The position numbers were made by a program, and so were the translations under genes. The notes under the pieces were generated by a model. The model worked only from the letters and a program-made list of their open reading frames with translations. It was not told the origin of the DNA and made no database searches. 64,000 bases of DNA. It comes from Patescibacteria group bacterium. GTDB taxonomy: Bacteria; Patescibacteriota; JACMRA01. The stretch covers positions 2,851 through 66,850 of the forward strand of contig JBCDGH010000001.1 of assembly GCA_038751365.1 (NCBI GenBank). The letters run 5' to 3'. Shown piece after piece: positions 3,095 to 26,196 of this stretch; the first letter of the stretch is position 1; every line of letters starts with the position of its first letter.

Positions 3095-3781
3095 TTAAAT
3101 ATAATACAGTCCTATCTCCTGATCTAGAATAACCTGACCTTTTTGTACTGTTACCACACGTTTTTTTAGTTTATCCACTACTTCTTGTTCGTGAGTAGCT
3201 AGTATTACAGTAGTTCCTGAATTATTTATTTTCAGTAGTAAAGTTATAATATCGTAGGTATTCGCTTTGTCTAGCTGACCAGTAGGCTCGTCAGCAATAA
3301 GTAGGATAGGGTTGTGCGATAGAGCCCGCGCGATAGAAACTCTTTGTTTTTCTCCTCCACTTAGTTCTTTAGGGTAGTTCTTGGCTTTTTCAGGAATACC
3401 AACTAATTCTAAAAGTCTAGGTACATCTCTTGATATCTCCTTCTTACTTGCCCCAGCCACCTCCATGGCAAGACTTACGTTTTCAAAAACTGTGCGGCTA
3501 GGTAATAGCTTATAGTCCTGGAAAATATAGCCAATTCTACGTCTTAAGTAGGGTAAAAACTCAGGTTTAATTTTATCAACGCGGATGTCTTCGATCCAGA
3601 CCTCACCCTCATTATCCGGCCTCTCTTCTCCAGTTAACATTTTTAGAAGGGTTGATTTACCCGCACCAGAATGTCCGATAATAGACACAAATTCACCAGC
3701 TTCAATAGTAAGGTTAATAGATTCAAGTGATGATTGTTGCTTGTTAGAGTACTTTTTACTTACATTAACTAGGCGTATCAT
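3095..3781 (-). CDS. ftsE: Cell-division ABC ATPase FtsE
   Basis: MIRLVNVSKKY..GHSGAGKSTLLK..LRRRIGYIFQD..LSGGEKQRVSIARAL..LIADEPTGQLD is collinear with E. coli FtsE. Start moved to the ATG at 3781. Confidence 0.85.
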   Translation of the reverse strand: MIRLVNVSKKYSNKQQSSLESINLTIEAGEFVSIIGHSGAGKSTLLKMLTGEERPDNEGEVWIEDIRVDKIKPEFLPYLRRRIGYIFQDYKLLPSRTVFENVSLAMEVAGASKKEISRDVPRLLELVGIPEKAKNYPKELSGGEKQRVSIARALSHNPILLIADEPTGQLDKANTYDIITLLLKINNSGTTVILATHEQEVVDKLKKRVVTVQKGQVILDQEIGLYYI

Positions 3782-3895
3782 AATCGTTGTGATGTTAAAG
3801 TACAATACTATGGTTGTCAACGAACTTTAAGTAGTCTATAATTGACAAAGTATCAGTACATTAGTTACAACTCAAAATATTAAACAAAAAAATTT

Positions 3896-4150
3896 ATGAA
3901 TCTACTAAAATTTTATAGAAATGGTCTGAAAAATCCAAATACTAGATGGGCTTTTATTCTTTTTACTTTTCTATACTTATTGAGTCCGATAGATTTGATA
4001 TTTGATTTTATTCCTTTTTTCGGTCAGATTGATGATATTGCTTTGATATTTGTTTTCATTACTGAAATGTTTAAGATTTTAGTGCTTCGAAAGCCTAAGA
4101 AAGAACGCAAAAAGAGCTTTGTTGATGTAGCATATAAATCTAAAAGCTAG
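3896..4150 (+). CDS. DUF1232 (YkvA-like) small membrane protein
   Basis: LLSPIDLIFDFIPFFGQIDDIALI motif plus hydrophobic helices. Confidence 0.6.
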   Translation: MNLLKFYRNGLKNPNTRWAFILFTFLYLLSPIDLIFDFIPFFGQIDDIALIFVFITEMFKILVLRKPKKERKKSFVDVAYKSKS

Positions 4151-4173
4151 ACTTCTTATACCAAAATACATGT

Positions 4174-5331
4174 TTACTGGTGGTGTGAGTGCCTATGATG
4201 CTTTGATTTGGGTAAGTATTTTAAGAAAGCCGGAGGATACTTTATGAAGTAAGCACCTAGGAAAGTAGATATTGGTACGGCAATAATTAAAGTAATACTA
4301 CCAATCAAGGTTCTTACTATCTCCTCAGCAATATACTCACTATTGGCAATAACCCATATAGGTTGGTTTTGAGTTATACTGAAGGTTAGTAGCAGAGGTA
4401 ATGATACTCCAGCATAAGCTAAGGCTAAGGTATTTATAAGTGAGGCAATATGATCCTTACCTACGTTCATACCTCTTTTTATGAGACTCCACAAGTTGAT
4501 TGAGTTGTCTACATCGTGGATTTCCTCAACAATGGACACTTGTGAGATTGTAATATCATCCAGAATACCTAAAGTTCCTACAATTATCCCTGCAAGTAAC
4601 AGTCCAGTAACGTCAATAGTTCCGGACTCGTTGGCTTGTAAGTAGAAGGCTTCTTCAGTACCCAGACCGAATAGATAAGTTATATCCACCGCCCACACCG
4701 ATAACATAATAGCTATGGAAATAGTTAAGAAAGTTGCGATTAAAGAAACGGTAGTCTTTCGATTGAATCCATGCGCAAGGTACATAGAAGCAAAGGCTAT
4801 AGCTACGGAGCCTGTTAGACCTATTACAATAGGATTCTGACCTATTTGTAAATTGGGAATCAAATACCTAAGTAGTATCAAAATACTAATAATTAAGCCT
4901 AAAATTGAATTTATACCTTTCCAACCTGATACAGCTACAGTCACCAAAATCGTTAAAATAACTATCAAGTATATTGAGTCTAATCTATACTTATCTACTA
5001 CAAAATAACTTAGCTCATCTTGGAAGCTAGTTTCCATAACTATAACTCTATCTCCCTCTGCAATTTTCTGACCTTCTTGTATTCTGCCTACTTTTTCAAA
5101 GTTAACTTCTTTAAATTGCCCTTTTGAGGGTCCTTCAGTTAGCTCTACTTCTAGCGTTGCTCGATAATTTGTTTCGTCACTAATATCTACGGAAATAACT
5201 TTCCTAACATAGCCTTTATAATACTGGTTTACGTTGGGTGGAGTATTATCTTGAGCTTTAGTTTGAATACCTGTGAGTAAAATTAGCCCGAAGGTGGCGA
5301 TCAGAACAATTTTAAAAATTAGGTTTTTCAT
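4174..5331 (-). CDS. YibE/F-family multi-pass membrane protein with His-rich C-terminus
   Basis: N-terminal signal/anchor, soluble beta-rich domain, then six or more TM helices. GILDDITISQVS motif; tail KSKHHRHSHHQ. Confidence 0.6.
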   Translation of the reverse strand: MKNLIFKIVLIATFGLILLTGIQTKAQDNTPPNVNQYYKGYVRKVISVDISDETNYRATLEVELTEGPSKGQFKEVNFEKVGRIQEGQKIAEGDRVIVMETSFQDELSYFVVDKYRLDSIYLIVILTILVTVAVSGWKGINSILGLIISILILLRYLIPNLQIGQNPIVIGLTGSVAIAFASMYLAHGFNRKTTVSLIATFLTISIAIMLSVWAVDITYLFGLGTEEAFYLQANESGTIDVTGLLLAGIIVGTLGILDDITISQVSIVEEIHDVDNSINLWSLIKRGMNVGKDHIASLINTLALAYAGVSLPLLLTFSITQNQPIWVIANSEYIAEEIVRTLIGSITLIIAVPISTFLGAYFIKYPPAFLKYLPKSKHHRHSHHQ

Positions 5332-5335
5332 AAGA

Positions 5336-6226
5336 TTAGATTTTGCGAGTGTGAAGTTTGAGTAGGTTATAAAATAAATACAACACAGTTAATTTTCCTA
5401 TTCCATTAGGGCTTGGGCACAGCATTATGTCTTCTCTCATATTTGTGTAATCTACATCTCCAACCAAACTCCCATTTTCTTCACTAGTTGAAGCGTCGAT
5501 AATTATACTTTTACTCTTGATCCATTCCTTATTTACTAAATTCGGTTTACCGGCAGCTGAAACTACAACATCTCCTAATTTACAAAGCTCTTGAGGGTTA
5601 CTAGTAAATTTGTTCAGAGATATGATGCTGGCAGATCGAGATTCTAGGTATCCCAATAAAGGGCTTCCAACTAATTTCCCTTGACCAATGACCGCTACTA
5701 CTTTGCCTTGCAAATTAAGCTTTTGGCTGAGTTTATCTTCTAAATTATTGTTCACGTCAAACATATCTTTGAGGACTAAGTCAATGGCTCCAACGGTAGG
5801 ACTCAAAAATCCCTGTCGCCATAATTCATACTTGCCCTGACCTAATAGATCTATGTCCTTGTAGGTGGGAATTTGTGATACTAATTGCTCTAGGTAGGTA
5901 GGTATTGGAAGTTGAAAAATCAGACCATCGTGTGGTTTAGACTTCTCATCCCGTTGCGTCAAAATTTTGGACTTATCAACACCGTCTTGATAAAGAAACT
6001 TATTGACCTTAATGCCTAGCTTACTACCTAGTTTCTGTTTGATACCTACATATTTTGTGGAAGCAAAATCGTTTCCGACTTGTACTACATCAAGTTCTAG
6101 CTGTTTGTCTAGAGCCTTTAAGTTATTGTTTAAGTAGGTTTCGAACTGCTGTATTATTGGTTTGCTATTGTATAGCACAAACAAACTTAGACGCATTTTT
6201 TTTAATAAGTCAATTGCCTCTGGCAA
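5336..6226 (-). CDS. folD: Bifunctional methylene-THF dehydrogenase/methenyl-THF cyclohydrolase (FolD-like)
   Basis: VQVGNDFASTKYVGIKQK, GLIFQLPIP, SPTVGAIDLVLK, GKVVAVIGQGKLVGSPL, VVSAAGKP, VGDVDY and SPNGIGKLTV are in FolD order. Confidence 0.75.
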   Translation of the reverse strand: MPEAIDLLKKMRLSLFVLYNSKPIIQQFETYLNNNLKALDKQLELDVVQVGNDFASTKYVGIKQKLGSKLGIKVNKFLYQDGVDKSKILTQRDEKSKPHDGLIFQLPIPTYLEQLVSQIPTYKDIDLLGQGKYELWRQGFLSPTVGAIDLVLKDMFDVNNNLEDKLSQKLNLQGKVVAVIGQGKLVGSPLLGYLESRSASIISLNKFTSNPQELCKLGDVVVSAAGKPNLVNKEWIKSKSIIIDASTSEENGSLVGDVDYTNMREDIMLCPSPNGIGKLTVLYLFYNLLKLHTRKI

Positions 6227-9427: not shown

Positions 9428-9661
9428 TCAACGATTTGGATTAAATGTATACCCAGACTCACAGAAAGCTATTAACTCAGGAAATTCCTCCTCTATTTGA
9501 TCTTGGTCAGATGAGTTATAAAGCTTGATACAAAATCTTTCGGAATGAGTTGTCATTGCAAGATCAGTATATACGGAAGTAGTGAAAAATAGTACAATAT
9601 TTGTAAGTAAGATAATGTTTAGCAGAATACTAACTAAGAGAAATATTTGTTTTTTGTTCAT
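9428..9661 (-). CDS. Small membrane-anchored hypothetical protein
   Basis: One N-terminal TM helix (IFLLVSILLNIILLTNIVLFF); no recognisable domain. Confidence 0.4.
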   Translation of the reverse strand: MNKKQIFLLVSILLNIILLTNIVLFFTTSVYTDLAMTTHSERFCIKLYNSSDQDQIEEEFPELIAFCESGYTFNPNR

Positions 9662-18137: not shown

Positions 18138-18211
18138 TGGTTCGGGGACAGGGATTCGAACCCCGGTTAATGGCGTCAAAGGCCACTGTCCTACCACTAG
18201 ACGATCCCCGA
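18138..18211 (-). tRNA. tRNA-Gln (anticodon UUG), CCA encoded
   Basis: The reverse complement folds by hand as TCGGGGA-TC-GTCT..AGGAC-A-GTGGC-CTTTGAC-GCCAT-TAAC-CGGGG-TTCGAAT-CCCTG-TCCCCGA-A-CCA. The 7-nt anticodon loop is C-U-UUG-A-C. Confidence 0.85.
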
Positions 18212-18223
18212 TTATAATTAACT

Positions 18224-18309
18224 TGGTGCGCGAGAAGGGATTTGAACCCTCACAAGATTGCTCTCGCTGGCACCTGAAGCCAGTGTGTCTACCGTTCCAC
18301 CACCCGCGC
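18224..18309 (-). tRNA. tRNA-Leu (anticodon CAG), class II with long variable arm, CCA encoded
   Basis: The reverse complement is GCGCGGGTGGTGGAACGGTAGACACACTGGCTTCAGGTGCCAGCGAGAGCAATCTTGTGAGGGTTCAAATCCCTTCTCGCGCACCA. It closely parallels E. coli tRNA-Leu(CAG). Confidence 0.9.
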
Positions 18310-21669: not shown

Positions 21670-22662
21670 TTACAAAACTTCTACGGACTCTATTCTAACA
21701 TCTTTACTAGGTCTAGTTAAGCCTGGGCTATCATCACTTTCTACAGGGTCAACTTGGTCTGAAATATAATCTAACACCTCGAAATCAGAATCATCAACTA
21801 CTCCAAATACAGTATAATCTGCTGGTAGCTGGGTGTCTTCAAGAGTAATGAAGAATTGGCTGCTCGCCGAATCAGGGCTGTTAGTTTTTGCCATTAGAAT
21901 AAGACCCTTTCTGTAAGTGACATTACCGGTTTCTTTGTCAAAATTTTCATAAAGGCTCGGTGCTCTGAATTCAGGCTCATTTATAATTTCTGAGCTACCA
22001 GCTTCTGCATCGGAACTTACTTCTGGTTCAATTATCCAAAGTTCGTCTACTAAGGGTTCTCCTGTGGCTGTCTCTCCTCCACTACCATTTCCACTAGGAT
22101 CACCACCTTGAATTACTGCAAAATTTTCTTGCTCAACTATTCTATGGAAAAGCATATTGTCGTAATAGTCACGATAAGCAAGTCTAACAAAGTTTTCGAC
22201 TGTTTCTGGAGCCCATTCTTTTTCCATGCTGATCTGTAACTTTCTTTCTTCTTGATCGTCTATAGAAATAGCCATTTCCACTTCAAACTCATTTCTTGAG
22301 TCCAAATCTAGTTCAGCAGATTCTTGAGCTAATCTGTCTTGATTTTCTTCTCTACTCCTAGCTTGTTCTGCCTCTACCTCTTTTTGCTCTCTAGCAGCCT
22401 TTGCCTCATCAGTTTGATCCGTAATGTAAGGGATTAAGACTAAACTAATACTGAAAGTAACCGCAATTGCTACAAAAGCTGATATTAGGGCGACTAGCTG
22501 ACTTGGTTTTATCCACTTTCTAGATTTCGAATCATTAGTAACGTTGTTAATGTTGACTTCAGGTTCAGAAGTTGCTGAATCAATGGGAGGAAGCTCTACC
22601 ACTGTCTTTTTCTTTTTGGAAACAGTTTTCTTTAATTTATTTGACATAAACTGGTTTGACAA
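21670..22662 (-). CDS. Membrane-anchored cyclophilin-type peptidyl-prolyl isomerase
   Basis: TM helix (VALISAFVAIAVTFSISLVLIPY), charged coiled segment, then APETVENFVRLA..FHRIV..FAVIQGGDP.G.G.GG...LILMAKT..DSASSQFFITL. Confidence 0.8.
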   Translation of the reverse strand: MSNQFMSNKLKKTVSKKKKTVVELPPIDSATSEPEVNINNVTNDSKSRKWIKPSQLVALISAFVAIAVTFSISLVLIPYITDQTDEAKAAREQKEVEAEQARSREENQDRLAQESAELDLDSRNEFEVEMAISIDDQEERKLQISMEKEWAPETVENFVRLAYRDYYDNMLFHRIVEQENFAVIQGGDPSGNGSGGETATGEPLVDELWIIEPEVSSDAEAGSSEIINEPEFRAPSLYENFDKETGNVTYRKGLILMAKTNSPDSASSQFFITLEDTQLPADYTVFGVVDDSDFEVLDYISDQVDPVESDDSPGLTRPSKDVRIESVEVL

Positions 22663-22860
22663 TAATACCTTGAGGCAATATTATTCCTACGAGTTCGTCA
22701 AGGGCTTTATATTAGTGTACACACAATACTAAATTATAACCTGTATAGGTTAAGATGTAAATGCAGAGTAAACATCAAAGAGTCCGTTAGTGTTTATATA
22801 AAATATAGTTATTTTCAAAATTATTTTCTTATAGCCTGAAAAAAGTTAATTCGTTTACTC

Positions 22861-25059
22861 ATGCCAAAAAAAACTATAGCCGAAACCCTAAAATCTAATT
22901 CCAAACCTAATGATAATATCAAGAAAGGCACTAAGAAGTCTTCTGCAGAAAGAAAAAGGTTAACTATTGGATCAGCCAAGGTTTCAAAAGCCAGAGTCCC
23001 CAAAATTACAAAAATTTTTAAGAACAAGCCTACTACCGAAAACACCAACTCTCTTCGTAGGAAAAGTAAGCCAGAAGATCAAAAGACTCGTGATACCGAG
23101 CGCAAAGAAGGTAAAAAAGGTGATTTTCTAGACTCTCCAAGAGAAGCCAAACCGAACGAACTTGTCACTCGTAAAGGTATTCTTGGGTTAAATCTAGTAT
23201 CAACTGCTGATTTGAATAGGAAAATTGCTCTTGATGATAATTCTATTGAGCAAAGAGGTAGTCGAAGGTACAGAGTTACTGAAGACGGAGTCCGTATCAA
23301 AATGAAAAAAGTCACCAAGCAAAGGACTAATAAGAATCATGGTAAGACTTTGAAAAAATTTATCGAGAATGACAGCTCACTCTACAGTGTGTTTCAATCA
23401 CAACCAGTTTCTTTTCAGTCAAAAGTTGTGGAAATGATTAAGCAGGGTATAACCCGTGGCTTTGTGACAGAGGATGAAATCTTGTATATCCTTCCTTTAC
23501 CTGAGGAAAATATCGATCTCCTAGAAGATATCATGGACTTGTGTGAAGATAGCGGTGCTCCTATCAGTTTTGATAACACTTTAGACAACTTATGGAGTGT
23601 GCTTGAAGATGAAGAAGAGCTTAAGAGGCAGGAGCGTGAACTAGCAGAAAAGCTAACTGGAAGTTTGGCTGGTGATGTAGGAGGTGAGGAGTTAAAAGAT
23701 GACGCTGTTCAGAATTATATTCGAGATATATCTAGATACCCTCTTTTGAATAAAGAAGAAGAGGTAGAGCTCTCAAAGCGTATTGAACAGGGTGATCAAG
23801 CAGCTAAAAGAGAATTAAACAATGCTAATTTGAGATTAGTAGTTCATGCAGCCAAAAAATACATGGGTCGCAATTTGGCTTTTCTTGATTTGATTCAAGA
23901 GGGTAATATTGGTTTGCTTAGAGCTGTAGAAAAGTTTGATTGGCGTAGAGGTTATAAGTTTTCTACTTATGCTAGTTATTGGATTGAGCAAAGTATTAGA
24001 AGAGCCCTTGCTGATCAGAGTAGACCAGTGCGCTTACCGGTACACGTTGAAGAGAAGTTGAATCGTTATCGTAGAGAAAAAAGAATGCTGATTGACGAGC
24101 TAGGTAGGGAACCTACAGATGATGAATTAGCAGATAAATTGGAGGTAGATTTAGATACTATATTTTATTTTAAGCGTATCAGTCAGGATACAGTGTCTAT
24201 TGATACTATGGTTGGTTTTTCCGAAGATAGTGACACTCAGCTAGTTGAGATGATTGAAGACGAAGCTACTGCCCAGCCCGTTGACGAAGCTTCAAATAGA
24301 GTCCTGAGAAGTCATATTATTCGTATTATCGATGATTGTCTGGAACCAAGAGAAAAGAAAGTTATTTTACTTAGGTTTGGTCTTGATGGTACAGGTATTG
24401 CCCACACCCTTGAAGAAATAGGAGAGGTGTTTAATGTCACACGTGAAAGAGTTAGGCAGATCGAAGAAGTTGCCTTGAACAAAGTTCGTCAACACGTAGA
24501 CAGTTTTAAGTTAGTTGACTTTTTGGAAGGTTTGAATCCACAGACTTTTGCACCGAGTAGTTTTAGAAGAGATGAAGGTAAAATTACTGATGTACCACTT
24601 AATAAGAAAATTAATATTGAGAATGTAATCGAGATTGTTACTAATCAGATAATATCAAAGACATGTAGCTTGTACTTCTTGAGAGGTGAAATGGGTGCAG
24701 GCAAGACTACCTTAGTCCAAGAAATCTGCAAAAAATTAGGTACTTCGACTCAAGCTTCATCACCGACCTTTTCTCTGCTGCAAAAATACCAATTGAAGAA
24801 GTCGTCTCAAGCAGCCAAAGCAGGAAACTATGACGAAGTAGCTCACATGGATTTGCATCGCCTAAAGTCTGTTACAGAAGTTGATCTTGGTTGGATTGAG
24901 GAAGAGATGGTTAACGTTGGTAATATTGTGTTTGTTGAGTGGCCCGAGAAGCTTCTAAAGAAGCAAGCTTTCATCCAATTTATGGGTAGAAAGTATCTCA
25001 TTATTGAATGTAAAATCGGTAAGAAAAAAGACCATTACTTTAGAATTAGAGAGAATTAG
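22861..25059 (+). CDS. rpoD: Primary-type sigma-70 factor (RpoD-like) with basic N-terminal extension, fused in frame to a C-terminal TsaE/YjeE P-loop domain
   Basis: Sigma regions: [79 protein letters not shown]. Then, from about 24628: [43 protein letters not shown] (TsaE signatures). Confidence 0.85.
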
Positions 25060-25065
25060 CAAACT

Positions 25066-26196
25066 ATGAATGTTTTAGTGTATTATGCTCCATTCGGTGG
25101 TGGGCATAAGGCAGCATCTAAAATTTTACTTGAGATAGCCAGTCAGTGTAAAGCAAACAATTTACAGCTTAAAGAGTTTGATATTACTCAAAATACTGGT
25201 ATAGTCACTAGCTTAATTTCTTTGTTTTATAGAGGTGTAGCTACTAAGTACACTAGGTTATGGGCGATCACGTTTTACCTTACTCAAAATAGGCTAGTTA
25301 TTAATGTGCTACAACTACTATTAGCTATAAAGCTAATACCTGGAATTACAGACGCCCTAAAAAAACATAAGCCAGATTTGATTATTACTACGTACTTTAT
25401 TGGCTGGTTTTTGAAGCATGCTAGTAAGCTAATGGGTTCAAATATCAAAATCATCACTTTAGTTACTGACCCTTTTGACGTTCATCCAGTATGGATAAAT
25501 AGCTCAAGTGATATGTATATTTTTGAGAGTCAAAAAGCCTTTGCAGAAGGTTGCAAATTAGGACTATCTGAGTCTACAGCTCGTATTATTAGTCCGTTAG
25601 TAAAGAGTCAGTTTAGTAGAATACCTAAAGCTGCTAATATCACAAAGTATAAAGAGAGCTTTGATTTGCAGAATAATTATAGAACAATTTTATTAGTGGG
25701 CGGTGCAGAGGGGCTTAAAGACGGAGATAGAATCATGATAGAATTAATTAAACGCTATCAGAATGTAAATATAGTAGTAGTATGTGGTAAGAATCAGGTT
25801 TATAGGGAAAAATGTGATAGCATAAAAGCTAGTTACTTCGCTACTAACGTATTAGTAATTGGTTATAGTACTCAGATGTATGAATTGATGAGTATAGCAG
25901 ATCTTGTTATTACAAAAGCTGGTCCTGGAATTATATTCGAAGCTGTGAGTTTAAGAAAGCCAATTTTGGTTAGTAGTTATTTGTGGAGACAGGAGCTAGG
26001 TGTAAAGGAGTATATCGTTGAGAATAGCTTGGGGTATTATACTCCTGACATTTCGCAACTACTTCAAAAAGTAGATTTAGTTTTGTCCAACCAGCATGAA
26101 CGACAAAAAATTCAAAGTGCTTACTCTGATCTTAATTTTCAACCTGGTAATAAACAAATGGAAGCTATACTCGAGGATCTAAGTACAGATTATTAG
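25066..26196 (+). CDS. MGDG-synthase/UgtP-like glycosyltransferase (GT28 family)
   Basis: MNVLVYYAPFGGGHKAAS N-terminal motif and C-terminal ITKAGPGIIFEAVSLRKPILV. Confidence 0.65.
   Translation: MNVLVYYAPFGGGHKAASKILLEIASQCKANNLQLKEFDITQNTGIVTSLISLFYRGVATKYTRLWAITFYLTQNRLVINVLQLLLAIKLIPGITDALKKHKPDLIITTYFIGWFLKHASKLMGSNIKIITLVTDPFDVHPVWINSSSDMYIFESQKAFAEGCKLGLSESTARIISPLVKSQFSRIPKAANITKYKESFDLQNNYRTILLVGGAEGLKDGDRIMIELIKRYQNVNIVVVCGKNQVYREKCDSIKASYFATNVLVIGYSTQMYELMSIADLVITKAGPGIIFEAVSLRKPILVSSYLWRQELGVKEYIVENSLGYYTPDISQLLQKVDLVLSNQHERQKIQSAYSDLNFQPGNKQMEAILEDLSTDY

Follow-up and report, generated by a model that had tools for sequence, protein, structure and literature searches.

Sigma factors and the ATPase TsaE are among the best-conserved proteins of bacteria, and they are normally separate. 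The question raised by the locus described here is whether the two have become a single protein in one lineage of Patescibacteria and, if so, what the joined protein does. The locus lies in a 64,000-nucleotide stretch of contig JBCDGH010000001.1 (assembly GCA_038751365.1), referred to below as the window, which has a composition of about 36% G+C. At 22861..25059 on the + strand, a single open reading frame (ORF) of 732 codons runs with 0 internal stops and ends with TAG at 25057-25059. A sequence-only reading of the window had proposed just such an uninterrupted ORF of 732 amino acids (aa), with a product of about 84 kDa made of a basic N-terminal region, a sigma factor and TsaE joined in one frame, and this was borne out: the computed mass is 84.0 kDa, the Pfam domains and the in-frame motifs agree on the join, and all three parts were verified. 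At this G+C content around 7% of random codons are stops, and a 732-codon open frame is thus far beyond chance, with our own arithmetic from the window composition giving an estimate of about 1e-23. The protein is held at NCBI as MEM1311864.1, from a metagenome-assembled genome (MAG) labelled "Patescibacteria group bacterium". Its automatic names capture one domain or the other, with NCBI assigning "TsaE" and JGI, for relatives, "RNA polymerase primary sigma factor".

The sigma part, from about aa 186 to 557, is likely a complete group-1-type sigma-70 factor and the housekeeping sigma of its lineage, judging from its domain order and closest matches. Region 1.1 lies at aa 186-258 (23416..23634, +), where the match to Pfam PF03979 is marginal at 24.7 bits against a cut-off of 22.5, and AlphaFold2 predicts a confident helical domain at 181-240 as well as a confident sigma core. 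Regions 1.2, 2, 3 and 4 follow at aa 281-544 (23701..24492, +), with collinear Pfam spans of 281-314, 321-388, 398-475 and 492-544 that score 53.9, 70.6, 54.6 and 55.5 bits, respectively, against cut-offs of 22-25. The sigma block had been recognised earlier from the motifs [11 protein letters not shown] and TRERVRQIE, and both are indeed in frame. The closest solved relatives are SigA and RpoD proteins, with E-values from 7e-79 to 1e-62, followed by RpoS at 1e-58. As in the SigA/RpoD structures 8x6f_E and 7ckq_F, regions 1.1, 1.2, 2, 3 and 4 and a C-terminal tail are all present and collinear, but the fusion differs from them by a 180-aa basic N-terminal extension and a 175-aa C-terminal addition composed of a spacer and TsaE. 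No enzyme domain after region 4.2 was found in any solved or described primary sigma factor.

The segment between sigma and TsaE had been described as a linker of about 50 aa, which turned out to be two things. The residues that directly follow region 4, aa 545-557 ([13 protein letters not shown]; 24493..24531, +), were assigned by alignment to SigA 8x6f_E as the native C-terminal tail of a primary sigma factor: DSFKLVDFL, within the stretch [11 protein letters not shown] after region 4.2, aligns to the last SigA residues and reaches position 367 of 368, and an LxDFLxG motif is invariant across the clade. Because this conserved motif aligns to the end of SigA, it belongs to the sigma factor and not to a linker. 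A true spacer does exist, although it is only about 28 aa long (aa 558-585; 24532..24615, +), and AlphaFold2 models it as disordered, with a predicted local distance difference test score (pLDDT) below 50. Its sequence identity is 35%, yet the distance from the sigma tail to the Walker A motif of TsaE is held at 48-53 aa in all 122 full-length fusion proteins compared. The full-length AlphaFold2 model (50 family members) has a predicted template modelling score (pTM) of 0.30, and the model thus defines no fixed packing between the domains.

The remainder of the protein, aa 586-732 (24616..25056, +), is a P-loop ATPase domain of the TsaE (YjeE/YdiB/UbK) family, as identified by two profile families and by fold. 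Pfam PF02367 matches aa 600-700 with 81.7 bits against a cut-off of 26.6, and the C-terminal 179 aa alone reach 72.7 bits with TIGR00150, where 60.1 are needed. A failure to match these two profiles had been named beforehand as grounds for dropping the TsaE assignment; both were passed, and the fold agrees. The signatures listed in the sequence-only reading are likewise all in frame between 24685 and 24942 on the + strand, namely Walker A GEMGAGKT (24685-24708), Switch I SPTF (24760-24771), Switch II HMDLHR (24844-24861) and the EW motif (24937-24942). Among PDB sequences, the domain matches 9zw5 (the best, deposited as TsaE), 1htw and 6n9a_E. In the full-length model the domain (about 580-732) has a pLDDT of 85-91, and when tail, spacer and TsaE were modelled on their own, the pTM was 0.79. 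The six best PDB fold matches of this second model are all TsaE/YjeE/YdiB proteins, with probability 1.00 and target-normalised TM scores of 0.57-0.60, and include the TsaE of the Thermotoga maritima TsaB2D2E2 complex; after these six the E-value worsens by about 1e4-fold and generic AAA+ proteins follow. A census of the 122 full-length fusions found Walker A, Switch I in the form SP[TS][FY] and EW in 122/122, and Switch II as H.D..[RK] in 121/122.

These signatures have known roles in the synthesis of N6-threonylcarbamoyladenosine (t6A) in tRNA: ATPase activity, multi-turnover t6A synthesis and contact with TsaD all depend on them (PMC6614819). In T. maritima TsaE, Thr42, Ser61, Asp80 and Glu108 are required for multi-turnover t6A synthesis, while Phe64 and Arg83 relay the reset signal, with Arg83 pairing with Asp11 of TsaD; TsaE and tRNA compete for one cavity of TsaB-TsaD, and TsaE binding depends on ATP (PMC6614819). 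Compared with free TsaE/YjeE/YdiB proteins (TIGR00150 and PF02367; structures 1htw, 5np9 and 6n9a_E), the fused domain shares the profile matches, Walker A, Switch I, the His, Asp and Arg of Switch II, the EW motif and the fold. It differs in forming the C-terminus of a sigma factor, not a free protein of about 150 aa, in having His or Gln for the Tyr/Phe of Switch II, and in an insertion of about 9 aa between Switch I and Switch II. The fused domain is, on these sequence features, best described as a divergent TsaE subtype.

At the other end of the protein, the Lys/Arg-rich N-terminal region that had been put at about 170 aa was confirmed and delimited as aa 1-180 (22861..23400, +), with 27% lysine plus arginine and an isoelectric point of 10.5. 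These 180 aa have no Pfam or NCBIfam match, and they are specific to the clade, where all members conserve them (E 1e-35 to 1e-66). The conservation is centred on a core of about 55 aa with many invariant Lys, Arg and Gly, placed by invariant alignment columns at aa 96-153 ([15 protein letters not shown]...[25 protein letters not shown]; 23146..23319, +), and this core has no relative in the PDB (E at least 0.2). AlphaFold2 leaves residues 1-115 mostly disordered and builds a small helix and three strands from 115-148 at a pLDDT of 66-74. In an exhaustive profile search, described below, only the fusion family and one other protein, P0361, had a best-scoring alignment that started before about residue 140, and the N-terminal match of P0361 was rejected as Ala/Lys low-complexity similarity. 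Judged by this shared distribution, the extension at one end and TsaE at the other appear to be joint hallmarks of the sigma factor of this clade. Binding of nucleic acid or RNA polymerase (RNAP) by the extension core is a guess.

How widely the architecture recurs was addressed with several searches. A query made of region 4 and TsaE recovered a dozen proteins with that pair of domains from four data sources. A scan of one genome per GTDB species, with an alignment of tail, spacer and TsaE as the query and TGA counted as a stop, found 23 genomes with a full-length match, all of them low-GC MAGs of Patescibacteria type with inconsistent NCBI labels, one being a complete 1.27-Mb chromosome (OY969926.1). 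In 21/23 genomes, a frame of 714-812 codons carries both the sigma and the TsaE signatures, so that the search of related genomes that the sequence-only reading had called for did turn up the same fusion. A search with the full-length protein returned at least 120 clusters at 90% identity from JGI, ENA, Logan and NCBI, on contigs some of which are 0.8-1.16 Mb long, and all that were listed are fusions of 703-780 aa with 57-100% identity. Finally, 1.84 billion sequences, each representing a cluster at 50% identity, were searched exhaustively with HMMER, and the fusion appeared as one full-length protein and two fragments. After these the score falls from 970 to about 340 bits and the matches cover the sigma core only; no independent sigma-TsaE fusion was present among the 150 best representatives. 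This drop, with nothing but sigma-core matches below it, indicates that the fusion family is one fairly tight clade, and by the sequences searched it is confined to that Patescibacteria clade. Within it, the identity to the window sequence across 21 genomes varies by segment, at 0.49 for the N-terminal extension, 0.65 for region 1.1, 0.85 for region 1.2, 0.95 for region 2, 0.75 for region 3, 0.90 for region 4, 0.80 for the sigma tail, 0.35 for the spacer and 0.56 for TsaE.

Such recurrence bears directly on whether two adjacent genes were merely joined by a sequencing error, a mis-assembly or the wrong genetic code. Errors do occur in this gene. The complete chromosome OY969926.1 (L009) has one frameshift, around 9430-9550, and its shorter frame was rejected as a junction break since that frameshift falls inside sigma region 2.4/3.0; in L022 the frame is cut by the contig end. 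In L002 (GCA_043787155.1, JAYVVK010000046.1), positions 1-1270 are a chimeric join to an esterase contig, seen as a composition break from 55-60% GC to about 40% near the end of homology, and the same TsaE-region sequence occurs within a full-length 728-aa fusion in L018. In L001 (ERZ28573549 scaffold_4354), sigma region 3 continues upstream in frame until a GC-rich, foreign contig end at 1-125. A distinct short architecture of region 4 plus TsaE, as in P0005 (245 aa) and P0008 (279 aa), was considered and, in view of L001 and L002, rejected. A split pair (P0243/P0245) and a non-recurring singleton with a different fusion, sigma with adenylate kinase (P0249), might also be held to favour an artefact. 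Every observed break, however, lies inside the sigma part, at a contig end or at a chimeric join, and never at the sigma/TsaE junction, where the stop or frameshift that had been raised as a possible refutation was sought and none was found; the frame is continuous in 21/23 species genomes and in all of the at least 120 listed clusters, at 57-100% identity and from four independent sources. Moreover, the frame is open even with TGA read as a stop in the scans, so an alternative genetic code did not create it. An artefact is accordingly hardly credible.

The singleton P0249 is a curiosity in its own right, as the best-scoring full-length sigma outside the fusion family. It consists of a complete primary sigma (regions 1.1 to 4) with a C-terminal adenylate kinase domain (PF00406, 99.5 bits). 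The idea that P-loop enzymes are more widely attached to sigma factors was rejected after a dedicated search gave no second example, and P0249 may be an assembly or gene-calling artefact.

The fused TsaE also appears, on present sequences, to be made in no other form. No terminator-like or strong promoter-like element was found by a sequence scan of the sigma/TsaE junction, and no internal Met before the TsaE domain is conserved among the 122 full-length proteins, from which it follows that TsaE is apparently not produced separately but only within the sigma protein. A separate tsaE in relatives had been suggested as something to look for, and no stand-alone TsaE was detected in the window or in about 0.35 Mb of clade DNA. 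A pre-fusion state, with rpoD and tsaE adjacent and separate, was sought as well and not found: the closest stand-alone TsaE proteins come from Bacteroidota and lie beside a PorX-type gene, not beside a sigma gene. On these Bacteroidota contigs (L083-L086), they are encoded immediately or one gene downstream of a PorX-type gene with Response_reg and PglZ domains, an arrangement that matches the UbK1-PorX neighbourhood of PMC13241743.

The partners of TsaE in t6A synthesis, TsaB and TsaD, had likewise been proposed as genes to look for, and the search was answered in part, with TsaD found in two clade loci. In L007 it is encoded at 5072-6226 (-), two genes from the fusion gene, and in L014 at 3106-4485 (-), a few kb upstream of it, with PF00814 matching at about 190 bits (191-194 in L007/L014). 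Canonical catalytic motifs are present in both loci. The L007 protein has the motifs IETSCDET, which includes the Asp that pairs with Arg83 of TsaE, HLHGH, DDAAGESFDK, GGVSAN and GDNAVM. Proximity of TsaD to the fusion gene is not conserved, being absent from the window and from most loci. Metagenome scans with the clade TsaD gave no match in the first instance and in the second one close locus (L087), a 10-kb sequence without TsaE, TsaB or the fusion gene. Both clade proteins are long, at 384 and 459 aa in L007 and L014, respectively, where a canonical TsaD has about 340 aa, and that of L014 contains Ser/Thr/Pro-rich low-complexity insertions. Both also read SGGN at the canonical loop S134GGH137 (PMC6614819).

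The conservation of the motifs, the TsaE fold and the presence of TsaD in the clade together favour a working TsaE, and both domains of the fusion are complete end to end. The interpretation that we prefer, with a probability of roughly 0.55, is that of one bifunctional polypeptide, a housekeeping sigma factor with a flexibly tethered, active TsaE that serves TsaB-TsaD. The TsaE domain would keep its ancestral job, its ATP form docking into the TsaB-TsaD cavity, and ATP hydrolysis would reset the t6A37 threonylcarbamoyl-transferase between turnovers. Independently of this, the sigma part would direct RNA polymerase to -35/-10 promoters. A single fusion event, in which the 3' end of a sigma gene was joined to the 5' end of tsaE, probably took place and was then retained. 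TsaE would then be made solely within the sigma protein, and the amount of t6A ATPase would follow that of sigma one-to-one.

Several observations weigh against this interpretation. On the sigma side, the NCBIfam equivalog cut-offs for RpoD are missed, with 359 against 555 for PRK05658, 340 against 572 for PRK09210 and 284.5 against 354 for TIGR02393 (RpoD_Cterm). The description of the sigma part as "primary", made in the sequence-only reading, is thus likely in view of region 1.1 and the best SigA/RpoD matches but falls short of these models, which we suspect represent such divergent lineages poorly. The same shortfall speaks for an alternative, group 2-like sigma factor with a canonical rpoD elsewhere in the genome, and RpoD proteins of about 410 aa do occur in other Patescibacteria. 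Such a sigma factor would be compatible with the other readings of the fusion. It seems improbable, though, given that region 1.1 is present, that primary SigA/RpoD proteins are the best PDB matches and stand well above RpoS, that clade identity to the window sequence is 95% in region 2 and 90% in region 4, that JGI names the relatives as primary sigma factors, and that no second sigma was found in the 64-kb window or in the flanks (up to 10 kb each side) of other clade loci. On the TsaE side, neither TsaB, the other half of the partner pair, nor TsaC/Sua5 was found in the window or in those flanks. The Tyr/Phe position of Switch II, where the TsaE consensus is HxDx[Y/F]R and where the Y82A mutant of T. 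maritima TsaE has no ATPase activity (PMC6614819), is never Tyr or Phe in the fusions but His in 110, Gln in 8, Asp in 2 and Lys in 1, whereas the nearest stand-alone TsaE proteins have Tyr there in 104/107; the insertion likewise sets the fusions apart, with a Switch I-Switch II spacing of 24 aa against 15 aa in stand-alone proteins. The fixed length of the tether despite its drifting sequence suggests that geometry relative to sigma matters. A further observation of this kind is one lineage, P0011 (a 397-aa fragment from JGI), that retains the fused domain although its TsaE motifs have decayed and only the P-loop is left (SPTF to SKSY, HxDLHRL to EITLDPI and EWPEK to ENPDK, with loss of the PF02367 match), which hints that the fused domain may have a role independent of TsaE catalysis.

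The tether and P0011 lend themselves to the idea that the attached TsaE was retained to link sigma physically, and in an ATP-dependent way, to TsaB-TsaD. In one variant, sigma would be sequestered by TsaB-TsaD, in an anti-sigma-like checkpoint that reports ATP and the load of unmodified tRNA; in another, sigma would recruit the t6A transferase to RNA polymerase, close to the position of region 4 at the RNA exit channel. The competition of TsaE and tRNA for one ATP-dependent binding cavity (PMC6614819) would suit such a device, as would the 48-53 aa tether with 35% spacer identity, the restriction to this clade of both the fusion and the N-terminal extension, which occur in one protein, and the nearby TsaD genes of L007 and L014. 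We nevertheless regard this coupling as possible but doubtful: AlphaFold2 gives no defined inter-domain packing, the proximity of TsaD is not a general feature of the loci, and full conservation of the catalytic motifs is equally explained by plain TsaE function. The corresponding general claim, that sigma and hence the RNAP holoenzyme is an ATP-dependent partner of TsaB-TsaD, such that initiation capacity and modification of the tRNA anticodon loop are mechanically coupled, is one that we would put forward only tentatively and think unlikely. Such coupling could operate by holding sigma on TsaB-TsaD whenever ATP or tRNA substrate runs short, or by delivering the t6A machinery to the sites of tRNA transcription, and if true it would constitute a new type of sigma regulation through an appended enzyme domain. 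The divergence at Switch II and the insertion could instead be taken as signs that the domain is not a t6A ATPase but acts on sigma/RNAP, modifying or gating it as a UbK-type protein kinase or nucleotide sensor. Autophosphorylation has been reported for the TsaE-family proteins YdiB, UbK and UbK1, as has phosphorylation of the response regulators RprY and PorX, and the paper on the crystal structure of Porphyromonas gingivalis UbK1 cites 9zw5, the best PDB match of the fused domain (PMC13241743). The fusion resembles UbK1 in its four signature motifs and in this best match, and the PorX neighbourhood of UbK1 is that of its nearest stand-alone relatives, directly downstream of the PorX-type gene; it differs in that its tie to a transcription protein is covalent, where that of UbK1 is one of gene neighbourhood. 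The kinase and the t6A ATPase need the same motifs, and sequence therefore does not separate them. The physiological relevance of UbK kinase activity is itself debated. A kinase or ATP switch is quite improbable here, as Tyr82 of HxDxYR, a reported autophosphorylation site (PMC13241743), is absent from the fusion clade, and the TsaD of the clade implies that a TsaE function is needed there.

The sigma-TsaE protein amounts to a new domain architecture of two well-known families, with a divergent TsaE subtype, and not to a categorically new system. Nothing like it had been known to the sequence-only reading, and literature searches across 8 million full texts agree in that no description of a sigma-TsaE fusion was found, although the sequences are public under partial automatic names. 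As those names cover half of the protein, surveys of gene content in Patescibacteria could wrongly score rpoD or tsaE as missing. Fusions of t6A components are known from comparative reviews, among them the archaeal Kae1-Bud32, the Mycoplasma TsaC/HemK, and YrdC-Kae1 in TobZ and HypF (PMC4615747, PMC9654439), and these provide a precedent for t6A components as fusion proteins. With the exception of TsaC/HemK, however, they unite partners that take part in one reaction or in similar ones, whereas sigma-TsaE joins a t6A component to a transcription factor; neither of those two reviews mentions sigma, and no fusion that they list involves a transcription factor (PMC4615747, PMC9654439).

What has been conserved in this one lineage of tiny, uncultured Patescibacteria, within the candidate phyla radiation (CPR), is an apparently undescribed link between transcription and tRNA modification. 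In the "Rosetta-stone" sense, a stable covalent fusion throughout a lineage signals that two functions are linked, here transcription initiation and t6A modification, and it offers a natural construct for asking what TsaE/YjeE/UbK proteins do beyond resetting TsaB-TsaD. Kae1/KEOPS was first described as chromatin- and transcription-associated, and the tsaD gene of E. coli adjoins the rpsU-dnaG-rpoD operon.

The only conserved neighbour of the fusion gene is a divergent gene for a cyclophilin-type peptidyl-prolyl isomerase (21670..22662, -; Pfam PF00160), found at the same position in 12 clade loci, whose N-terminus is basic and has a hydrophobic segment that looks like a membrane anchor when judged by sequence features. 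The intergenic region shared by these two divergent genes contains, upstream of the fusion gene, a promoter-like site, TTGACA-17-TATTAT (22656..22684, +), that agrees with the consensus at 11/12 positions; it is a consensus match only, and such sites are no more numerous in the region than expected from shuffled sequence. Downstream, a glycosyltransferase resembling monogalactosyldiacylglycerol (MGDG) synthase and family GT28 (25066-26196, +) starts 7 nucleotides after the fusion stop codon and, in view of this short gap, is probably co-transcribed with the fusion gene; it is a common neighbour of the window and its closest relative, L003, only. The only Rfam or ARAGORN matches in the window are the adjacent genes for tRNA-Gln(TTG) and tRNA-Leu(CAG) at 18138-18309 (-). 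Among the other sigma-70 proteins most closely related to the fusion, P0291, P0282, P0327, P0384 and P0390 continue beyond region 4 for about 100-580 aa with no Pfam match, and segments of region 3 and/or region 4 appear to be duplicated in P0251, P0366 and P0390.

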